Below, piece by piece: positions 8,462-29,164 of a stretch of 45,904 nucleotides of DNA (positions are counted from its first letter, which is position 1; each line of letters opens with the position of its first letter). Under the pieces are notes generated by a model. It saw only the letters and a program-made list of their open reading frames with translations. It made no database searches and was not told where the DNA came from. The DNA lies in sequence record NC_073064.1. One strand, given 5' to 3'. Origin of the DNA: Escherichia phage vB_EcoS_PTXU06. The translations under genes and the position numbers were made by a program.

Positions 8462-9548
8462 TCAATATTTGGCGGATCGAATGATCCGCCGTCACATCTT
8501 CACCCAACGCCTGAGCAATGACCAGGCGCGAAGGGTGCTGGCTATGTGGGAGAAGTTCCGCCCCGCTTTACTGGGTAAGTTGACCGAGCTACTAGATGGT
8601 AAAAAGTCCATGAGCAACAAGGCACTTACCACACTGTTAACGCAACTAGACAAGACCGTCAAAACGGAACTGCGCGCCGAGTTTAAAGTGCTGGCGGAGA
8701 GCCTTCAGGAGTTCGCCGACACCGAGGCTGATTATCTCGCTGACACACTAACGGCAGCGATCCAGCCCGCTGTCGCCGTACCCGCTGTTGAAGTAGTTGG
8801 CGTTGTTACCGGCGCGCAGATTGCAGCGACTGCAGTGAAAAACCCGTTCCAGGGTAACACCATGATGCAATGGCCTGACTCACTTTCCGAGTGGACCAGG
8901 ACGCAGATCGGCAATCAGGTGCGCGCTGGATTCATCCAGGGCAAGCCGACTATGGAAATTATTGCGGACGTGAGGCGCGCGCTAGGCGGTCGTAGTGCGC
9001 AAGCAATCTCAAGCGTTGTTAAGTCCGCGGTCAACCACTATGCGGCGACCGCCCGCGAATTAATGGTAAAAGCTAATGATGATATTCTCGAAGGTCGCCA
9101 ATGGTTGGCTACATTGGACACGCATACTTCTCCCATGTGCCAGCTACGCGATCGCCTGTTTTATCCGGTTGCTGTTACTCCCGACACCAAAGGCAAGCGC
9201 GGCGGGAAAGTGGTGGCGGGATCACAATATGGCGCTGGTCCGGGCAAGCTGCATTATTGCTGCCGTTCGACGGAGACGTGGAAAGTCAAAGGTATGGAAG
9301 ATTGGCCCAGTGGTAAGCGTCCGGCACTGAAGGCTGACGCAGGCAGGTTGCTGAGTGAGCAGGTCGACGCGCAGACTGATTTCTTCTCCTGGGTGCAGCG
9401 CCAGCCGCGCCATATTCTGGAGGAATTATATGGGGTGCAACGCGCCGACCAGATTATGCGCGGCGTGAAAGTGCCGAAGATGTTTACCGATTCTGGCGAA
9501 CTGATGACTATTGCACAGCTTAAAAACCGGGGGTTATGGCGTGATTAA
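8445..9548 (+). CDS. head morphogenesis / minor head protein
   Basis: 367 aa directly after portal; positional call. Confidence 0.5.
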   Translation: MAKTINQYLADRMIRRHIFTQRLSNDQARRVLAMWEKFRPALLGKLTELLDGKKSMSNKALTTLLTQLDKTVKTELRAEFKVLAESLQEFADTEADYLADTLTAAIQPAVAVPAVEVVGVVTGAQIAATAVKNPFQGNTMMQWPDSLSEWTRTQIGNQVRAGFIQGKPTMEIIADVRRALGGRSAQAISSVVKSAVNHYAATARELMVKANDDILEGRQWLATLDTHTSPMCQLRDRLFYPVAVTPDTKGKRGGKVVAGSQYGAGPGKLHYCCRSTETWKVKGMEDWPSGKRPALKADAGRLLSEQVDAQTDFFSWVQRQPRHILEELYGVQRADQIMRGVKVPKMFTDSGELMTIAQLKNRGLWRD

Positions 9549-9870
9549 ATATGCAGCGATCGTACTGGTTATCGGTCTGGTGGTAGGATTCTGGCTAGGT
9601 GACTCCTATCGCGCTGGCGTAGTGGCGGAGGCGGCACAAGAAGCGCAAGCAGAAGCCCAACGGCAGCAAACTAAAGTTATTGAGCGCTCCGTGCAGGCCG
9701 AACAAGCCCGCGACGTAGAATACCGGACTATCACGAAAGAGGTTGTTAAATATGTTACGCGCCCTAACCGCCCTGATTGTAGTTTTGATGCTGAGCGCGT
9801 GCGGATCAAGCAACGTGCCGTTGATGCCGCTAACGGAGTCGGCACTGCGACCGCCGTGCAAGTTCGATAA
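9541..9870 (+). CDS. i-spanin (Rz-like)
   Basis: GTG start with CCGGGGG RBS 7 nt upstream; N-terminal TM helix (AAIVLVIGLVVGFWLG) then coiled-coil-like AEAAQEAQAEAQRQQ; contains an embedded lipoprotein ORF in another frame. Confidence 0.45.
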   Translation: MIKYAAIVLVIGLVVGFWLGDSYRAGVVAEAAQEAQAEAQRQQTKVIERSVQAEQARDVEYRTITKEVVKYVTRPNRPDCSFDAERVRIKQRAVDAANGVGTATAVQVR

Positions 9871-9982
9871 CCCGTCCGCGGACCCCGACGAAGATTTGAT
9901 GATTGACGTGAAAAATATGGAATGCGGCGCGAAGCTAAGGGCGCAGGTCCTGGAGTTGCAGCAAATGATTAAGGGGCCGTAA
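9752..9982 (+). CDS. o-spanin (Rz1-like outer-membrane lipoprotein)
   Basis: ATG 9752 with GAAAGAGG RBS; signal peptide with lipobox L-S-A-C (MLRALTALIVVLMLSACGSS); proline-rich; starts inside the i-spanin gene in a different frame. Confidence 0.55.
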   Translation: MLRALTALIVVLMLSACGSSNVPLMPLTESALRPPCKFDNPSADPDEDLMIDVKNMECGAKLRAQVLELQQMIKGP

Positions 9983-22024: not shown

Positions 22025-22632
22025 CCACCTTTAAACTCTACGGCGTCTTAGGACGTCGTTTCGGTAAAGTGCATAAGCTGGACTGCTTCACGCCGGGCGA
22101 GGGTATCACCGGCCTGTGTGTGAAGTTACCAGGCCTACAGGACTTTTTAATGTCGGCCCACCTTGACAACATGATGTTCAAAGTGCGCAAGGGCAATCAC
22201 ACAATGACCGGCTACGATGAGCTGGGCGAGTTCCACGGCAACCGCGTAGTAACCATCGCCCCGGTTATGACTGGTGCAAAAAGCGGACTGGGCCAATTGC
22301 TGGCGGGTGTAGCAATCGTGGTGGCGTCGTTCTATACCGGCGGGCTTGCGACTGCCGCTTTCGGAGCTTCAGCGGCGACCGCGGCCTCTATTGGCGCAGC
22401 GACGTTTTCGTTCGGGATGTCTATGGCGCTGGGGGGCGTTATGCAATTGCTATCGCCGCAACCGAAAGGATTGCAGACACGGCAGGACGTGGATAACAAG
22501 GCGTCGTATGCGTTCGGCGGACCGGTAAACACGACCGCGCAAGGCACGGCACTTGGTGTATTATGGGGCGAACGTGAGATCGGCGGCGCTATTATTTCAG
22601 CCGGAATCGTAACAGAGGACTTGAACGAATGA
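22015..22632 (+). CDS. tail assembly protein I-like
   Basis: 205 aa; Gly/Ala-rich hydrophobic C-terminal half; position between K-like and J-like genes. Confidence 0.6.
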   Translation: MAMTTFKLYGVLGRRFGKVHKLDCFTPGEGITGLCVKLPGLQDFLMSAHLDNMMFKVRKGNHTMTGYDELGEFHGNRVVTIAPVMTGAKSGLGQLLAGVAIVVASFYTGGLATAAFGASAATAASIGAATFSFGMSMALGGVMQLLSPQPKGLQTRQDVDNKASYAFGGPVNTTAQGTALGVLWGEREIGGAIISAGIVTEDLNE

Positions 22633-25600
22633 CGATTATCTACGACGTCACTGGGCATAAAGGCGGCGGCGGCAAACAGCACACCCCGCAGGAGACGCCG
22701 GACAGCCTGCATTCGCTGGCTAAAATCCGCATCTTGCTTGCGCTGGGGGAAGGGGAGTTCGAAAGTATTACCAGCGCCAGCGAATTGCGGCAGCGAGTAT
22801 ATCTGGACGGCACGCCGATCCAGAACGCCGACCTGTCGGAAAACTTCCCCGGCGCGCGCGTGGAGTTCCGCCCAGGCACACAGCACCAGGACGTGATCCA
22901 CGGATTTTCAGCGGTAGAAAGCGAGCAGTCCGTCGGTGTAAAACTGGAAAACGGCACGCCGTGGGTGCGCCAGATTAATGACACCAGTCTTGACGCTGTG
23001 CGCATTCGAATCGGCATTCCGGCTTTGTACACCAACGAAGATAATGGCGACCTGGTGGGCGGGCGCATCGACTATAAAATCGTTGTGTACACCGATAACG
23101 CGGATCCGCGCGAGTTCAACTTCGCTGCCGTTGGTAAAACAATGTCGCTATATGAGCGCGACCACCGCATCGAATTACCGCCGAACGTGAATACCGGCTG
23201 GCGCGTGGAAGTTCACCGCACAACGGCAGATTCTACATCGGCGAAAGTGGTTAATGATATCCGGGTGCAATCCATCACTGAGATTATCGACGCCCGCCTG
23301 CGTTACCCGCTAACCGCGCTGTTGTTTGTGGAGTTCGACGCCAAAGCGTTCCAGAACATCCCGCGCGTGTCCATCAAGTGCAAAGGCCGCAAAGTTCTAA
23401 TACCGAACAACTACGACCCGATTAATCATACCTATTCCGGGGACTGGGATGGCACGTTCAAACGCGCATGGACGGATAACCCCGCGTGGCACTGGTACGA
23501 TATTTGTATTACTGAGCGCTTCGGCCTCGGTCGGCGTATCAAACCGCAAATGTTAAACCGGTACGCGCTCTACCAGATTGCGCAGCGCTGCGATCAGTTG
23601 GTCAGTGACGGCAACGGCGGGCGAGAAATCCGCTTTAAGAATGATATGTACATACAGTCGCAGACCGACGCCTGGACCGTGCTTAAGGATCTAGCTGCCA
23701 TCTTTGCCGGTATGACCTGGTGGGGAAACCAGATGTTGAATATCGTAAGTGACCAGCCGGTCGCAGCGGTATCGCACACTATCACCAACGCCTCGGTTAT
23801 TGATGGCAGATTTGACTACGCGTCAGGGAGCCAGAAAACCCGCTATTCCACGTTCGCGGTAGCATACGGCAACCCGAAAAACCACTATGATGACGCTATC
23901 GCAACGGGCCAGCGCGTCGAACTGGTGCGCCGCCATAAGATTAACCGTCTTGATATAACGGCGATCGGCTGTACGCGCGAATCTGAAGCGCAACGCCGCG
24001 GACACTGGGCGCTAATCTCCAACCAGTTGGACCAGCAGGTCAGCTTCAAGGTTGGCATGGAGGGGCTATTCTTTATTCCTGGTAGCGTAGTCGCGATCGC
24101 GGATACTAATATTTCCGGCGGATTCGAGACTCGCGGCGGTCGCCTGTTGTCAGACCCTGGCACGCGTACCGTGCTTAACACAGACAGCGAAATCACATTC
24201 CGCCCTGGTGATAAGTTCCTGGTGCGCACCGATAGCGGAAATGTGGAGACTCGCGAGATCGCCAGCGTCAACGGCAACAAGGTCACGCTAAAAACCGCAC
24301 TGGATGCCGACCCGATTCCAGACCAACCGTTTTGCGTTGATGGCGACGATATCCAGTTGCAAAAATTCCGCATCACCGATCTGGAGTATGACGACTCTAC
24401 GAGCACTTTCTCGGTGCGCGGGATTGAATACAACGATAGCAAATATGATGCCGTTGATAATGGCGCACGACTAGACCCGGGCATCTTTACGCAAGTGCCA
24501 GACGGGGTAATGAAGGGGCCGGAATCCGTGACCATCACCCCGTCGCAGATTTCATCGCAAGGACAGCTAATCACCAACGTGGATATTGTTTTCCCGCCGG
24601 TGAAAGATGCCGTTGTATACGAAATCCAGTGGCGACGTACCAGCTTGCAGAATATGGCAATCCAGTGGGGAAACGACTGGGTAAACATCCCCCGCACGGC
24701 ATCGAACGGCGCTCACATCCCAAATGTGTTTTCTGGTAACTACCAGGCCCGCGTCCGCGCGATCGGTATGGGCGAGATTTCATCCCCGTGGGTGGAGTCT
24801 GCCATCACGCCGGTAGAAGGTCGTCTCGGTGGGCTTAACGCGCCTATCATCACTAACGCGATTTCTGGCCTCCACCAGATTTTGTGGAAGTGGAACCATA
24901 ACAACGCCGCGACGGATATCTCTTACACCGAGCTTGAAGTGCGCAAGACTGGTGAAACGGAATGGAAATTTCTTACAAACGTCCCATATCCGGGGGCGGA
25001 GTATGCCCAAACGTCACTGGAGTTCGGGATCTATCAGCAGTTGCGCGCCCGTGTAGCGGATAAAATCGGCAACCTATCGGACTGGTCGGACCCGTTTGAA
25101 GGGCAGGTGAGTGACAAAGTTGACGAGTACATGAAGGGTCTTGATGACGAGTTCTTGACTTCCGAGGATGGTAAACGCTTCCAGGAAGCAATCGACACGA
25201 TCCCGCAGGGTATTTACGAGGCGATGCTCACCGACGCGCAGCAATTGTTCAACGCCCGCGCCGAGTACAAGGGTATTTATGCGGAAATCTCGGTCGCGTA
25301 TAACGTGGCGGCGGACGCCCACAAGGCGGTCGCCCAACTGGAGACGTTGATCGGCACGCGACTTGACGATGCGGAAGCGGCGATCCACACGTTGCAGACA
25401 GCGCAAAGCACGCACGAACAAGCGTTTGCCCAGTACCAGCAAACTGTTGCCGCTAAGTTCGGGGAACAGGAAGCCGCCATCCAGCAGGTGCAAACGGCAA
25501 CGGCAGACGTAGCGGGCGCGCTGGCGGAGTACAAGACCCAGGTCGCGGCACAGTTCGGTCAGCAGTCCGCCGCTATCGAGCAGAAGATGACGTCCACGTT

Positions 25601-26051
25601 TAACCATGCCGGTGGCAACGCCACATACCGCCTTAAGGCTGGCGTGACGTATAACGGGACTTACTACGATGCCGGTATGCAGCTTTCAGTTGTTGCGGAA
25701 GGTGGCGAGGTTAAATCCCGCATCGCGTTCAAGGCGGACCAGTTCTACATCATGCACCCATCTAACGGGTCGCTTTCGTCCGCGTTTATCGTGGACGGCG
25801 GCGCGGTGTATATTGACACGGCACGCATCAAGGACGCGACTATCAACTTCGCGCAGATCACGGACACGCTGCAATCGAATAACTATGACGGCTACTCGCG
25901 TGGCTGGCGCTTAGGGAAAGACGGAACGTTTATCAACCTGGGAACCGGTAACGGTGGCGGGGCGATGAAAATGACGAATGACACAATCAGCGTAAAGGAT
26001 TCTAACGGAGTTTTGCGAGTTCAGATTGGTAAAATCACGGGGGGTTGGTGA
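22629..26051 (+). CDS. host specificity protein J-like central tail fiber
   Basis: 1140 aa; N-terminus (HKGGGGKQHTPQE...) resembles lambda J-family proteins; terminal gene of the tail-tip operon. Confidence 0.85.
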   Translation: MTIIYDVTGHKGGGGKQHTPQETPDSLHSLAKIRILLALGEGEFESITSASELRQRVYLDGTPIQNADLSENFPGARVEFRPGTQHQDVIHGFSAVESEQSVGVKLENGTPWVRQINDTSLDAVRIRIGIPALYTNEDNGDLVGGRIDYKIVVYTDNADPREFNFAAVGKTMSLYERDHRIELPPNVNTGWRVEVHRTTADSTSAKVVNDIRVQSITEIIDARLRYPLTALLFVEFDAKAFQNIPRVSIKCKGRKVLIPNNYDPINHTYSGDWDGTFKRAWTDNPAWHWYDICITERFGLGRRIKPQMLNRYALYQIAQRCDQLVSDGNGGREIRFKNDMYIQSQTDAWTVLKDLAAIFAGMTWWGNQMLNIVSDQPVAAVSHTITNASVIDGRFDYASGSQKTRYSTFAVAYGNPKNHYDDAIATGQRVELVRRHKINRLDITAIGCTRESEAQRRGHWALISNQLDQQVSFKVGMEGLFFIPGSVVAIADTNISGGFETRGGRLLSDPGTRTVLNTDSEITFRPGDKFLVRTDSGNVETREIASVNGNKVTLKTALDADPIPDQPFCVDGDDIQLQKFRITDLEYDDSTSTFSVRGIEYNDSKYDAVDNGARLDPGIFTQVPDGVMKGPESVTITPSQISSQGQLITNVDIVFPPVKDAVVYEIQWRRTSLQNMAIQWGNDWVNIPRTASNGAHIPNVFSGNYQARVRAIGMGEISSPWVESAITPVEGRLGGLNAPIITNAISGLHQILWKWNHNNAATDISYTELEVRKTGETEWKFLTNVPYPGAEYAQTSLEFGIYQQLRARVADKIGNLSDWSDPFEGQVSDKVDEYMKGLDDEFLTSEDGKRFQEAIDTIPQGIYEAMLTDAQQLFNARAEYKGIYAEISVAYNVAADAHKAVAQLETLIGTRLDDAEAAIHTLQTAQSTHEQAFAQYQQTVAAKFGEQEAAIQQVQTATADVAGALAEYKTQVAAQFGQQSAAIEQKMTSTFNHAGGNATYRLKAGVTYNGTYYDAGMQLSVVAEGGEVKSRIAFKADQFYIMHPSNGSLSSAFIVDGGAVYIDTARIKDATINFAQITDTLQSNNYDGYSRGWRLGKDGTFINLGTGNGGGAMKMTNDTISVKDSNGVLRVQIGKITGGW

Positions 26052-26054
26052 TAT

Positions 26055-26076
26055 AGGGGCTTCGGCCCCTTCTATC
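26055..26076. terminator. bidirectional terminator-like hairpin
   Basis: AGGGGC-TTCG-GCCCCT hairpin between convergent genes; weak T-tract. Confidence 0.4.
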
Positions 26077-26689
26077 AATCGTATTTAGCCGCATCTATTG
26101 CGAGTATGGATGGTGAATAATAAACGCCGAGCGGCCCTGGTGTGTGGGCGACTTGCTTAGATATCGAATAAATGCTTGTTCCGGATGCGCCGGATTGTGA
26201 TTCATAAATCGCGTGCCCACCAATCTGAGGGGTGGGAACCGAGTTTATTGCCGTTTGTTGTGGCGATACGGCACATGTATACCCCAGATTAACATCAAAA
26301 GACAGACCATTTATCGGTATTTGGTGGGCCTCCAGCGGCAGCATTTTCCCGTGGTACACCATATTCCCAGCAGAATTATAGAATGCGATCCCGTAGTCTC
26401 CTGGCGGGGTAACCATATCACTAAAAGCATAAACCTTAATCCATCCGGGATTGTCGGTCTTGTCTAGCCGGAGCGCATGGTAACCCCCGTTATTTATGTG
26501 AGAGAATGCGGTGTACGCTCGCCCGCCCATCCTCACAAAGAAAAAGCACACGCGATCGAATGGTATTGGCGTTGTAAAAACAGAACCGCTATACACCCCC
26601 ATATCACCGCGACTTATTAAATTAACAGGCGTAAAATCCGGGCTTAACCAAATGGACCCATCCGGCTTTGTGATCTGCATTCCGTACAT
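26075..26689 (-). CDS. hypothetical protein
   Basis: 204-aa ORF with GGGGG RBS; 1-nt gap from the upstream ORF; no recognisable motif. Confidence 0.5.
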   Translation of the reverse strand: MYGMQITKPDGSIWLSPDFTPVNLISRGDMGVYSGSVFTTPIPFDRVCFFFVRMGGRAYTAFSHINNGGYHALRLDKTDNPGWIKVYAFSDMVTPPGDYGIAFYNSAGNMVYHGKMLPLEAHQIPINGLSFDVNLGYTCAVSPQQTAINSVPTPQIGGHAIYESQSGASGTSIYSISKQVAHTPGPLGVYYSPSILAIDAAKYD

Positions 26690-26690
26690 G

Positions 26691-26990
26691 CTACCCCCAA
26701 TACGTATATATAAATCTTGATTCGCCAGCGTTAAAGCCGCTCCAGGAGACAGTGTTGTCGCTTACGGATATTGATGGCGCACCCCAAGATGTGCCGTTCC
26801 AGGTATGCGTACCAACGTAACCTGCCTTTAAACTTTTCCCCGGCGGACGGTTGTGATACGTCTTGCTCCCGGATGGTTGTGTGAATTTGTCAAGAAAAAA
26901 AACCGGCGTTAACAGGCCTGTGACGTCACGACCATGTTCGTCATAAATCGCGTACCCATAGTTACTCACTTCTACACTCCACAATTTCAA
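26691..26990 (-). CDS. hypothetical protein
   Basis: 99-aa ORF, translationally coupled to the downstream gene. Confidence 0.45.
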   Translation of the reverse strand: MKLWSVEVSNYGYAIYDEHGRDVTGLLTPVFFLDKFTQPSGSKTYHNRPPGKSLKAGYVGTHTWNGTSWGAPSISVSDNTVSWSGFNAGESRFIYTYWG

Positions 26991-27231
26991 ATTTATCTTC
27001 GCTTTGCCATCTGTGAACGAAAGTTACAAATTTCTGTGATGGGGCTACTCGGTATTGTTTTTCGCCAAATCGGTTTTCACGCACCGCGTTTAGTTTAACA
27101 GGGTAGCTATCGTTTACGGGGAATGTTTTAACCGCATATTGGCCTACGCAATCGATAGCCTTGTAGTTGCCGTCTGGCGATGCGGAGCAACCGGACAAAA
27201 GAACCGCACAAATCATAATTAAAGTTTTCAT
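26962..27231 (-). CDS. small lipoprotein (candidate superinfection-exclusion / receptor-blocking protein)
   Basis: Start at the internal ATG with GGAGA RBS; signal peptide with lipobox L-S-G-C (MKTLIMICAVLLSGCSA); sits between two tail fiber genes. Confidence 0.5.
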   Translation of the reverse strand: MKTLIMICAVLLSGCSASPDGNYKAIDCVGQYAVKTFPVNDSYPVKLNAVRENRFGEKQYRVAPSQKFVTFVHRWQSEDKFEIVECRSE

Positions 27232-27311
27232 GGTATCATCTCCTATATTTGGTTGAGTTTTAGTATTACACCGCTCGATCAAGAATGCAACCAATTTACG
27301 AGGATTTAGCT

Positions 27312-29135
27312 ATGGCAGCGGGCACACTATCCGTAACGAATAACAGCAAGGCGGTTGTAGGGGTCGGGACAACGTTTACCGCGTTTAACGCTGGCGACTT
27401 CTTAACGCTGGTGGTAGGGCAAGTCCCCTACACCGTAGCAATCGCGTCCGTTGAAAGCGAAACCGCGCTTACGCTGGTGTTACCGTTCGACGGCCCAACG
27501 GCAACCGGCCTTGCGTGGGATGGCGTTAAGCGCGATACCATGTCACTGGCGACGATGGGCGTAACCGTACAGGCACAGAAAGCATTGCGCTTGATGCTTG
27601 CAGATGAAAACAACTGGCGTGCAATCTTCGGCGACGCTGAAGAAATAACCGTGACGTTGCCTAACGGGCAGGTAATGCAGGGTATGTCATGGGGATATCT
27701 GTCGCAGTTGATGAAACAGGTCGACCCAGTTGAGATGCGCAACCTGCAACAGCAAGCCGCCGCATCTGAAGCAGCCGCGCAGGGATACCGGAACGAGGCC
27801 GAAGGCTTCAAGACCGAGACGGCGGGCATTCGCGACGCCACCAATCAGATTAAGGCGGATACGCAGGCGATCCACGACGCCACTAATACCATCAAGACGC
27901 AGACTGACCTGATTAAGACTGATACTCAGGCCATCAAGGACCAGACGAACCAGATCAAGACTGACACCGGCGTTATTCGTGACGAAGCCAATATGGCGAA
28001 GACTGACGCGCAGGCCGCCAGCGCTGCCGCGCAGGGATTTCGCGATCAGGCCGAAGAATGGGCGCAAAGCGTAAACCCCGACAATCTGCTAACCAAATCC
28101 GGCAACCTCGCCGGGCTTGCGGACAAAAGTGCGTCGTGGGCTAACCTTATGCCGTCAGGACCGCTTCGCGTAGGTGCGGACCCCGTAAACACCCTGGACG
28201 CTGCGACTAAAGGGTGGGTGTGGCGCGGTCTTGATGACGTGGGGCTTTGGGGTTTACGCAATAACTACGCTTCAGAACCCGCAGGGGGTGCAGAAGTATA
28301 CGGCGGGCGCTTTGACTCCTCTGTGAACGTCGCAGGGACCGAAAAATACAGAATGTCGATACAGCTTCAGGGGCGTAATAACGTAGACGCCTGGACACGT
28401 TTGGCGACCGCTGACGTCCGCAGCATGGCGAACGCGGCGACGTGGGACTTTAAATATGATGGCAAGATTATTTTCAATAAGGGATTGAGTCCATCGTCCA
28501 CCTCGGCGTCGCCAGGTAATACCTACGTAACCCTTGCGAATACATGGATGGACAGCCAATACTCGGGACACGTCGGCTTTGTTGGAGGCGGGGCGGGGAC
28601 GAGTGGTGGCGGGTGGCGTAACTTTATTTCGTTCGGCGCGCTGATCCACCCGCCCACCGGTAACTCGCACCCCCATGCTATGATTGCGCAGGTCTTTGAT
28701 TATGATTTGGCGTCCGGGACACAGCCTAACGGCGATAGCGTTCGAAACACTACATTCAACCCCGAAGCATACGATATCACCTTCGGCAACAACTTAGGGA
28801 CTGTTAACTATATTTTCGCAAAGTCCCCGGTATCCGATAGGGCGCTGAAGCATGATATCGCCCGGATCGATACTCAAGTTGCGTACGATAACGTTATGAC
28901 TATGGAGTACTCGTCCTTTGTTTATAACTACGACAAAAAAGAGACGGTTAGACGTGGTTTTATCGCGCAGCAGTTGGAAGAGATCGACCCGCAGTATGTC
29001 CGCAAGTACACCAACGCAACCGGTAAAGAGTTTCTGGCATTAGATGAAAACGTCCTACTACTTGACCTAATCGCGACTGTTCAGCATTTGGCGGCGAAGG
29101 TTGAGGCGTTAGAAAGTAAGTTAGCGGAGAAATGA
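27312..29135 (+). CDS. side tail fiber with C-terminal intramolecular chaperone-like domain
   Basis: Start at ATG 27312 with GAGGA RBS; repetitive T/Q/D-rich shaft (IKTDTQAIKDQTNQIKTDTG); C-terminal SDRALKHDI...coiled coil resembles S74-type auto-cleaving chaperone domains. Confidence 0.7.
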   Translation: MAAGTLSVTNNSKAVVGVGTTFTAFNAGDFLTLVVGQVPYTVAIASVESETALTLVLPFDGPTATGLAWDGVKRDTMSLATMGVTVQAQKALRLMLADENNWRAIFGDAEEITVTLPNGQVMQGMSWGYLSQLMKQVDPVEMRNLQQQAAASEAAAQGYRNEAEGFKTETAGIRDATNQIKADTQAIHDATNTIKTQTDLIKTDTQAIKDQTNQIKTDTGVIRDEANMAKTDAQAASAAAQGFRDQAEEWAQSVNPDNLLTKSGNLAGLADKSASWANLMPSGPLRVGADPVNTLDAATKGWVWRGLDDVGLWGLRNNYASEPAGGAEVYGGRFDSSVNVAGTEKYRMSIQLQGRNNVDAWTRLATADVRSMANAATWDFKYDGKIIFNKGLSPSSTSASPGNTYVTLANTWMDSQYSGHVGFVGGGAGTSGGGWRNFISFGALIHPPTGNSHPHAMIAQVFDYDLASGTQPNGDSVRNTTFNPEAYDITFGNNLGTVNYIFAKSPVSDRALKHDIARIDTQVAYDNVMTMEYSSFVYNYDKKETVRRGFIAQQLEEIDPQYVRKYTNATGKEFLALDENVLLLDLIATVQHLAAKVEALESKLAEK

Positions 29136-29139
29136 GAAT

Positions 29140-29164
29140 AAGGGGCCATACGGCCCCTTTTTTA
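29140..29164. terminator. bidirectional rho-independent terminator
   Basis: AAGGGGCC-ATAC-GGCCCCTT hairpin followed by TTTTTT at the switch from plus to minus transcription. Confidence 0.65.

Follow-up and report, generated by a model that had tools for sequence, protein, structure and literature searches.

A BtuB-type receptor-specificity cassette with a predicted receptor-blocking lipoprotein in Escherichia phage vB_EcoS_PTXU06

Why would a small T1-like siphovirus keep a lipoprotein gene, together with two further small genes, in the midst of its tail genes, and what could their three products do? The question is raised by Escherichia phage vB_EcoS_PTXU06, whose sequence of 45,904 nucleotides (nt; record NC_073064.1; hereafter the window, that is, the whole stretch analysed) carries at 26075-27231 a cassette of three minus-strand genes, with the J-like gene on one side and a Peptidase_S74 fibre gene on the other. 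The products are a prolipoprotein of 89 amino acids (aa) and proteins of 92 and 204 aa. An earlier note, made from the letters of the sequence, had described three minus-strand open reading frames (ORFs) between the J-like gene and the side tail fibre, and had proposed for the most upstream one a role in superinfection exclusion, like that of the small lipoproteins Llp of phage T5 and Cor of lambdoid phages. The positions proved correct, and the GenBank record of a close relative, Escherichia phage vB_EcoS_Zar3M, has the same three coding sequences annotated. We consider it probable that the cassette is a self-contained terminal-receptor module in its BtuB-specific allele, which would join predicted BtuB-binding tail-tip proteins to a BtuB-blocking lipoprotein.

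The BtuB allele of a published receptor-specificity locus

The window is a Dhillonvirus, and its region 25900-27500 is 99.8% identical to Zar3M and 92% identical to phage BEK2-2, the only two among 152 matching phage records that share the cassette over most of its length. In the Drexlerviridae phages Bas06 (KarlJaspers) and Bas04 (FritzSarasin) the locus has an identical layout, with products of 89, 92 and 204 aa encoded convergently with gpJ. The Bas06 locus is 77% identical to the cassette at the nucleotide level; over their full lengths, the 204-aa protein, the 92-aa protein and the lipoprotein share 84%, 81% and 79% of their residues with the Bas06 products, and 61%, 72% and 54% with those of Bas04. 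Compared with FhuA-type alleles, the amino acid identity of the 92- and 204-aa proteins is 22-24%. Two features were used to assign a locus to the BtuB type, and both are present here: the cassette lies just downstream of the gpJ homologue, at a hypervariable site, and its products exceed 30% full-length identity to proteins of BtuB-dependent phages.

The receptor that goes with such a locus has been reported in several publications. According to the BASEL supplementary table, Bas04 and Bas06 both have BtuB as their terminal receptor and Bas15 has FhuA, and a 2026 preprint confirmed BtuB for Bas06 through random barcode transposon-site sequencing (RB-TnSeq). Maffei et al. 2021 (PMC8594841) found that the alleles of the receptor-binding protein (RBP) locus downstream of gpJ, each with its cognate exclusion proteins, match the receptor “without exception”, a correspondence that spans Drexlerviridae, Dhillonvirus and Queuovirinae. 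In the 2025 BASEL paper (PMC11990801), BtuB has a colour of its own among the Dhillonvirus alleles, and the locus of PTXU06 is included for comparison. Because the cassette is orthologous to the Bas04 and Bas06 loci, and the match between locus and receptor is published, the window carries, as judged from its sequence, the published BtuB allele of the receptor-specificity locus downstream of gpJ; BtuB is accordingly the predicted target in this phage.

As a discovery the cassette adds little: earlier publications have described this class of receptor-specificity locus, connected it with BtuB and reported that it is paired with exclusion lipoproteins, and this lineage is already a comparator. 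Our two modest additions are the placement of the recombination joints and a remote but controlled homology to Cor for a lipoprotein family that is unnamed in current hidden Markov model (HMM) libraries. The interest of the locus lies in what it decides, which is the outer-membrane protein used by a T1-like phage and, probably, also the receptor that is shut down after infection. Reading it makes the receptor predictable from sequence, here BtuB, and this can be put to use in phage cocktails that avoid cross-resistance and in host-range engineering through cassette exchange.

A side observation concerns five records labelled “Campylobacter phage” (MG065643, MG065649, MG065657, MG065680 and MG065681, each of 49,946 bp), which carry the cassette at 77% nucleotide identity; in A139, one of the phages so labelled, the 204-aa protein is 84% identical. 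These records appear to be T1-like coliphages whose host has been mislabelled.

Predicted receptor binders and a predicted receptor blocker

The 204-aa protein falls into phrog_425 (E-value 3e-47), the family of N15 gp23 and T1 ST31, and the 92-aa protein into phrog_557 (1e-18), the family of N15 gp22 and T1 ST32; sequence searches of Pfam, NCBIfam and the PDB with all three cassette proteins yielded nothing meaningful. Neither of the two proteins has a signal peptide or a transmembrane segment, the maximum Kyte-Doolittle hydropathy over 19 residues being 0.55 for the 92-aa protein. The AlphaFold2 (AF2) model of the 204-aa protein, with a predicted local distance difference test (pLDDT) value of 91.2, is all-beta, and this predicted model shares its fold with the solved RBP of the Oekolampad/Rtp44-like group (PDB 9rpt chain C). 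The PHROG names of the two families, “outer membrane” and “membrane associated”, were rejected for these proteins in view of the missing signal peptide and transmembrane segment and of the match to an RBP fold.

The arrangement of the genes in other phages bears on the same point. In T1 and phi80 the phrog_557 gene, the phrog_425 gene and cor follow J in that order, with the 557-425 pair on the J strand. Bas15 and JLBYU60 likewise have the pair on the strand of J, and their cor gene faces the other way. In the window the 557-425 pair has the reverse orientation and comes after the lipoprotein gene, so that the three genes form one compact leftward unit. In the Nonagvirus JenP2 and the Shiga toxin (Stx) phage 933W, the pair occurs without any lipoprotein. 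In JenP2 (L008 2217-3115) it is 44% identical and inverted relative to J, as in the window; in the short-tailed 933W (L007 3268-4118) it corresponds to L0126/L0127, with 42% identity, just upstream of lom.

Since the 92- and 204-aa proteins have no signal peptide or transmembrane segment, and since the pair occurs without a lipoprotein, we conclude that they are tail-tip proteins, presumably located in the virion, and not exclusion factors. The 204-aa protein is predicted to be the terminal receptor-binding protein, of BtuB type, and the soluble 92-aa protein to be a small partner or adaptor of this tail-tip RBP. The BASEL authors and the 2026 preprint likewise propose proteins of the 204-aa type as receptor binders. 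For the earlier note, receptor recognition was the task of the J-like gene and of the side fibre; it did not recognise the 92- and 204-aa ORFs as the genes that most likely encode the terminal receptor-binding proteins, nor BtuB as the predicted receptor.

The signal peptide of the lipoprotein (residues 1-14, with Met-Lys, a hydrophobic core and the lipobox LSGC at 27187-27198) is exactly as the note had quoted it; Cys15 is the lipidated residue and Ser occupies position +2. As a control for chance, a lipobox-pattern scan of the whole window in six frames retrieved two loci only, the lipoprotein ORF and the o-spanin at 9752-9982, and 17 of 20 shuffled sequences contained no match, the remaining three giving 1, 1 and 4. 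Besides the lipidated residue, the protein has only two cysteines, mature Cys14 and Cys72. A profile search of 1.84 billion representatives gave 30 relatives at E <=0.001, nearly all of them lipoproteins of 79-108 aa, and in every correctly trimmed relative (30/30) the lipidated cysteine is accompanied by exactly two others, one at mature position ~10-19 and one a few residues from the C-terminus. All family members have the lipid-Cys signal, including P0131, P0135 and P0147, which the strict pattern missed as they have F, N or W at lipobox position -3. Because none of the 32 listed trimmed members has Asp at +2, sorting of the family to the outer membrane is expected. The window's lipoprotein thus has two of the features of the Cor/Llp group that were looked for: a lipobox signal peptide with a compatible +2 residue, and two further cysteines near the mature termini, aligned with those of Cor and Llp and predicted to form a disulfide.

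How far does this resemblance go? The PHROG model phrog_1119 (“Cor superinfection exclusion protein”) matches the full-length lipoprotein over residues 1-87 (E 3e-7), and T1 Cor, phi80 Cor, T5 Llp and BF23 Llp at 1e-19 to 7e-37. With signal peptides removed, HHalign of the lipoprotein family with Cor (T1, phi80, Bas15 and JLBYU60) gave 93% (E 3.5e-7), aligning residues 11-73 with 6-58 from end to end, with both cysteines paired; the reversed alignment gave 0.1%, and 30 column shuffles gave at most 1.3%. The value for T5 Llp is weaker than that for Cor, 54.5%, and that for Rtp45 is 0.7%. The lipoprotein also occupies the Cor slot of the J-distal module and co-varies with the receptor type. The superinfection-exclusion role that the note had proposed is therefore supported in silico, by the Cor slot, the profile alignment, the cysteine pair and the co-variation with the receptor, as a receptor-blocking role of Cor/Llp type.

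Several points weigh against this reading of the cassette, and the first of them limits the homology search that the note had recommended. When the signal peptide is removed, the phrog_1119 match vanishes and only phrog_27799 is left, at 0.002; because of this loss, the lipoprotein appears to be a remote and longer relative of Cor, not a typical member, with a weaker link to T5 Llp. BF23 Llp, the one known experimental case of a BtuB-blocking lipoprotein, has no significant similarity to it (HHalign 3-7%). The AF2 model of the lipoprotein, built from a 6-sequence alignment, reaches a pLDDT of 39 and gives no support for an Llp-like fold; AlphaFold3 likewise failed on Rtp45 (Dunbar et al. 2025, PMC12685063). 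A promoter consensus scan gave nothing beyond the shuffled expectation, an exclusion factor that is co-transcribed with a virion protein raises a question of timing, and the authors of the KanT1 paper (PMC13164509) read the two non-lipoprotein genes as exclusion-linked membrane proteins. A motif “VR..(D/N)RF” common to BF23 Llp and the lipoprotein family was considered and rejected, as the similarity is not significant and the motif is degenerate in phage S113.

Beyond the T1-like phages, the lipoprotein has distant homologues, of 27-34% identity, in the ~57-kb Providencia phages PSTCR7 and PSTCR4 and in ~90-kb Proteus and Cronobacter phages (Grimontviridae), among them Proteus phage P59 (L015 3001-3276), and a Foldseek search of BFVD with the 204-aa fold retrieved Proteus phage 3H10_20 and PSTCR7. 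From these occurrences of both partners in Providencia and Proteus phages, the pairing of binder and blocker may extend well beyond T1-like phages.

Gene structure, recombination joints and a possible common ancestry

All three cassette genes are real and under purifying selection, with ratios of nonsynonymous to synonymous substitution rates (dN/dS) of 0.03-0.16 against the orthologues in Bas06, Bas04 and BEK2-2 (lipoprotein 0.09-0.16, 92-aa gene 0.03-0.12, 204-aa gene ~0.06), and the trio of 89, 92 and 204 aa adjoining J is seen again in metagenomic T1-like contigs. The flanking genes are as the earlier note had described them, on the evidence of their Pfam domains (Table 1). The ATG of the lipoprotein gene has a GGAG 8 nt upstream. 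Mechanically, the ORF of the 92-aa gene reaches back to a TTG at 26990; the GTG start given in Table 1, which overlaps the lipoprotein stop, suggests translational coupling.

Table 1. Features of the receptor cassette and its surroundings (positions in the window)
Feature	Position	Strand	Description
J-like gene	22629-26051	plus	Pfam FNIII-A_GpJ, Phage-tail_3, Phage_Tail_Tip; stop codon 26049-26051
J tip, last ~40 codons of the J-like gene	25926-26051	plus	Appears to travel with the cassette
GC-rich hairpin AGGGGC-UUCG-GCCCCU	26055-26070	either	Inside the 23-nt gap separating the convergent stops (J 26049-26051; 204-aa gene 26075-26077)
204-aa gene	26075-26689	minus	phrog_425; ATG 1 base past the stop of the 92-aa gene
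92-aa gene	26691-26969	minus	phrog_557; GTG start within GTGAGTAA, overlapping the lipoprotein stop
Lipoprotein gene	26962-27231	minus	89-aa prolipoprotein, MKTLIMICAVLLSGC followed by SASPDG...; predicted superinfection-exclusion (receptor-blocking) protein
Region upstream of the cassette operon	27232-27290	minus	Shine-Dalgarno sequence GGAG 27240-27243; hand-read candidate promoter
Lateral tail fibre gene	27312-29135	plus	Peptidase_S74 chaperone domain, aa 508-563

The three cassette genes appear to make up one leftward operon, which converges with J. Its putative promoter is a weak sigma-70/extended -10 candidate read by hand, TTGCAT at 27285-27290, a spacing of 17 nt, and TGtAATACT at 27262-27270. 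At the other end, the hairpin between the convergent stops has fold energies of -19.5 kcal/mol on the plus strand (z -2.1) and -15.3 kcal/mol on the minus strand (z -2.75), and is probably a shared bidirectional terminator that ends the J and cassette transcripts; a clear U tract is missing on the minus strand, and in the terminator scan the hairpin was not flagged, nor did anything exceed the shuffled expectation.

Where was this unit joined to the rest of the genome? The FhuA-type Dhillonviruses Bas15 (PaulFeyerabend) and JLBYU60 align with the window at ~90% nucleotide identity up to 26071 and again from 27184, with no alignment between these points, the cassette being the sole block of the receptor-module region that they do not have in common with it. 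The right joint falls within the signal-peptide codons of the lipoprotein: the signal peptide MKTLIMICAVLLSGC is identical in the Cor proteins of Bas15 and JLBYU60, and the DNA from 27184 upward (signal-peptide codons and upstream region) is ~90% identical to the FhuA-type Dhillonvirus Cor genes. The left joint has no sharp edge. Within the final ~125 nt of the J-like gene, the FhuA-type Dhillonviruses become less similar (from ~90% to 70-78% identity) and Bas06 more similar (from ~45% to 60-76%); the blastn match to Bas06 begins at 25959. The J tip carries the motif “AMKMTN[DE]TISV” in the window and in Bas06; T1, Bas15 and JLBYU60 have “KQTNT.ISV” there, and phi80 is different. This co-variation of the J tip with the cassette type agrees with receptor-class-specific k-mers in the C-terminal tip of GpJ, which are reported in a recent preprint (bioRxiv 10.64898/2026.04.02.716166), and the last ~25-40 residues of J are likely the docking surface for the 92- and 204-aa proteins.

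In GC content the cassette (0.43-0.49) lies below its flanks (0.52-0.61) and the Dhillonviruses (0.544) and near the Drexlerviridae genomes (~0.44-0.45), which fits its acquisition from T1-like phages of lower GC. The receptor binders and the blocking lipoprotein appear to be inherited and exchanged as one unit, with the recombination joints in the signal-peptide codons of the lipoprotein and in the last ~30-40 codons of J. A second mosaic block is seen in the lateral tail fibre gene (27312-29135), where homology to Bas15 and JLBYU60 ends at ~27804/28059 and resumes at ~29128-29140; because of this interruption, the distal, glycan-binding part of the fibre is read as an allele different from theirs.

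A further hypothesis concerns the ancestry of the receptor binders themselves. The motif YG.A.[YW]D..G stands at the N-terminus of the 92-aa protein and occurs twice in the 204-aa protein, at residues 2 and 98; hhalign on the repeated domain gave 79-85% at the motif and 56% over the whole domain. GIY-like motifs (GIY.[IV].D) occur in Rtp44 (L012:6753-7688, minus) at about residues 3, 114 and 210. These repeats suggest a three-domain architecture, each domain opened by a strand like YG.A.[YW]D..G, that would be split in the cassette, T1 and phi80 and fused in the LptD-type RBPs, Rtp44 and the Oekolampad RBP (~310 aa). The registers of the Rtp44 alignment (1-121 and 112-291) fit a fusion of 557 and 425 and are not significant; the 557 and 425 profiles give less than 1% against Rtp44 in hhalign, likewise not significant. 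We would put just under an even chance on the hypothesis that the FhuA, BtuB and LptD receptor binders, recently termed “unrelated”, are one ancient family of three ~100-residue beta domains, split (92+204 aa) or fused (~310 aa), and that the module with its cognate lipoprotein is an invertible plug-and-play cartridge with joints in the signal-peptide codons and the last ~30-40 J codons. If true, a swap of ~1.2 kb could redirect receptor specificity and self-exclusion at the same time.

Mechanism, alternatives and known systems

The preferred reading, a BtuB module that combines binder and blocker, supposes the following sequence of events. On the virion, the single-domain 92-aa protein and the two-domain beta 204-aa protein would attach to the C-terminal tip of J and together make up the adhesin for the outer face of BtuB. 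In the infected cell, the prolipoprotein would be processed by the host Lgt, LspA and Lnt and anchored in the inner leaflet of the outer membrane, where it may bind the periplasmic face or the plug of BtuB, as T5 Llp does with FhuA. The extracellular loops of BtuB would then be locked in a state that the phage's own RBP (the 204-aa protein) cannot use, with the outcome that further BtuB-dependent phages would be excluded and progeny kept from adsorbing to debris.

The periplasmic binding and the allosteric mechanism are inferred for this lipoprotein by analogy. The periplasmic T5 Llp, which has a Cys11-Cys58 disulfide, binds the FhuA plug in a non-native state, and two extracellular loops fold over the pb5 site (PMC9586334); in the same study, the disulfide of Llp and Cor is described as constraining the termini, and the authors propose the mechanism for other TonB-dependent transporters. 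By cryo-EM, Rtp45 was located on the periplasmic side of LptDE, with the homologous Oekolampad RBP outside (PMC12685063), and BF23 Llp is the experimental precedent for a phage lipoprotein that blocks BtuB (PMC10644984). A structure of the present lipoprotein with BtuB would tell whether the “plug-jamming” of Llp and FhuA extends to other TonB-dependent transporters.

The alternative that survives best keeps this mechanism and changes its purpose: the lipoprotein would mainly guard progeny from futile DNA ejection on debris or infected cells (“lytic conversion”). Dhillonviruses are isolated and studied as plaque formers, with no report of lysogeny in the literature consulted; an operon shared with a virion protein suggests expression that reaches late, and the dual role is the stated rationale for superinfection-exclusion factors (PMC12685063, PMC13164509). 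The two benefits are not mutually exclusive, however, and are inseparable from sequence alone, and we regard guarding of progeny as the chief purpose as rather unlikely, though well ahead of the other alternatives.

A much less probable alternative would have the module target an outer-membrane protein other than BtuB, for instance another TonB-dependent transporter. The cassette proteins differ from those of Bas06 by 16-21%, and single substitutions can switch the receptor in other RBP families (bioRxiv 10.64898/2026.04.02.716166). Yet Bas04 (54-72% identical) and Bas06 (79-84%) both use BtuB, so that this class of alleles tolerates such divergence, and the published correlation of locus and receptor holds “without exception” (PMC8594841).

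A shade more improbable still is the view that all three genes form an exclusion or “moron” cassette, in which the 92- and 204-aa proteins would sit in the host membrane or outer membrane and help the lipoprotein to block the receptor, and J would carry the specificity. The KanT1 paper assumes an exclusion-related role for genes of this type, Lewis et al. 2023 name the J-like protein as the RBP, and the two genes share the orientation of the lipoprotein gene, with which they are apparently co-transcribed. Against it, both proteins lack a signal peptide and a transmembrane segment, their genes follow J on its own strand in T1 and phi80, and JenP2 and 933W have the pair with no lipoprotein; moreover, the J bodies are ~90% identical across FhuA- and BtuB-type Dhillonviruses, whereas the pair is 22-24% identical.

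That the lipoprotein is an Rz1-like o-spanin acting in lysis is effectively refuted: it is a small phage lipoprotein with cysteines, and other Cor proteins match spanin HMMs weakly through their signal peptides, but it has no spanin match at E <=0.1, is not proline-rich, and lies in the tail-tip module of a window whose genuine Rz1-type o-spanin is elsewhere. The latter (9752-9982, plus; phrog_5672 8e-26, phrog_1267 1e-11) is embedded in an ORF at 9511-9870 (plus), probably the i-spanin, and its position puts the lysis cassette ~17 kb from the receptor cassette.

How, then, does the BtuB module compare with the systems already known? Its nearest counterpart is found in Bas04 and Bas06, in the BtuB allele of their “bona fide RBP locus”, with the same gene sizes, order and convergence with gpJ and 54-84% amino acid identity. 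The host genome is a Dhillonvirus here (GC ~0.54) and belongs to the Drexlerviridae there (GC ~0.44), and BtuB dependence is experimental there and predicted here.

With the Cor systems of T1, phi80, N15, HK022 and the FhuA-type Dhillonviruses, the cassette shares the same three families (phrog_557, phrog_425 and a Cor-like lipoprotein) directly after J. The lipoprotein signal peptide is identical to that of the Dhillonvirus Cor genes, the upstream DNA is ~90% identical, and the cysteine pair of Cor is kept (HHalign 93%). The target of Cor is FhuA, whereas BtuB is predicted here; the mature lipoprotein is ~17 aa longer and is missed by the Cor HMM once the signal peptide is removed. The 557-425 pair, only 22-24% identical, lies on the J strand in those systems, whereas here it is inverted, downstream of the lipoprotein gene and in one operon with it.

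The LptD module of Rtp45 and Rtp44 has the same operon layout, with the lipoprotein gene first and the RBP gene next, on the strand opposite J, and in the Rtp/Oekolampad system both exclusion (by Rtp45) and receptor binding (by the Oekolampad homologue of Rtp44) have been shown experimentally and structurally (PMC12685063). The receptor there, LptDE, does not belong to the TonB-dependent transporters; Rtp45 has no sequence relationship to the cassette lipoprotein (HHalign 0.7%) and displaces a loop sterically instead of acting through plug-mediated allostery, and the RBP is one polypeptide of ~310 aa, in contrast to the two genes (92 + 204 aa) of the cassette. T5 Llp and BF23 Llp, finally, are small lipoproteins of the outer membrane; their genes lie beside the RBP gene, and each inactivates the TonB-dependent receptor on which its own phage relies. 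The Cys11-Cys58 disulfide of T5 Llp is analogous to the Cys14/Cys72 pair here, with a marginal similarity (HHalign 54.5%), and the llp genes of T5 and BF23 diverge from the RBP gene and have an early promoter of their own, unlike the lipoprotein gene of PTXU06, which stands at the head of the same leftward unit as its predicted receptor binders.

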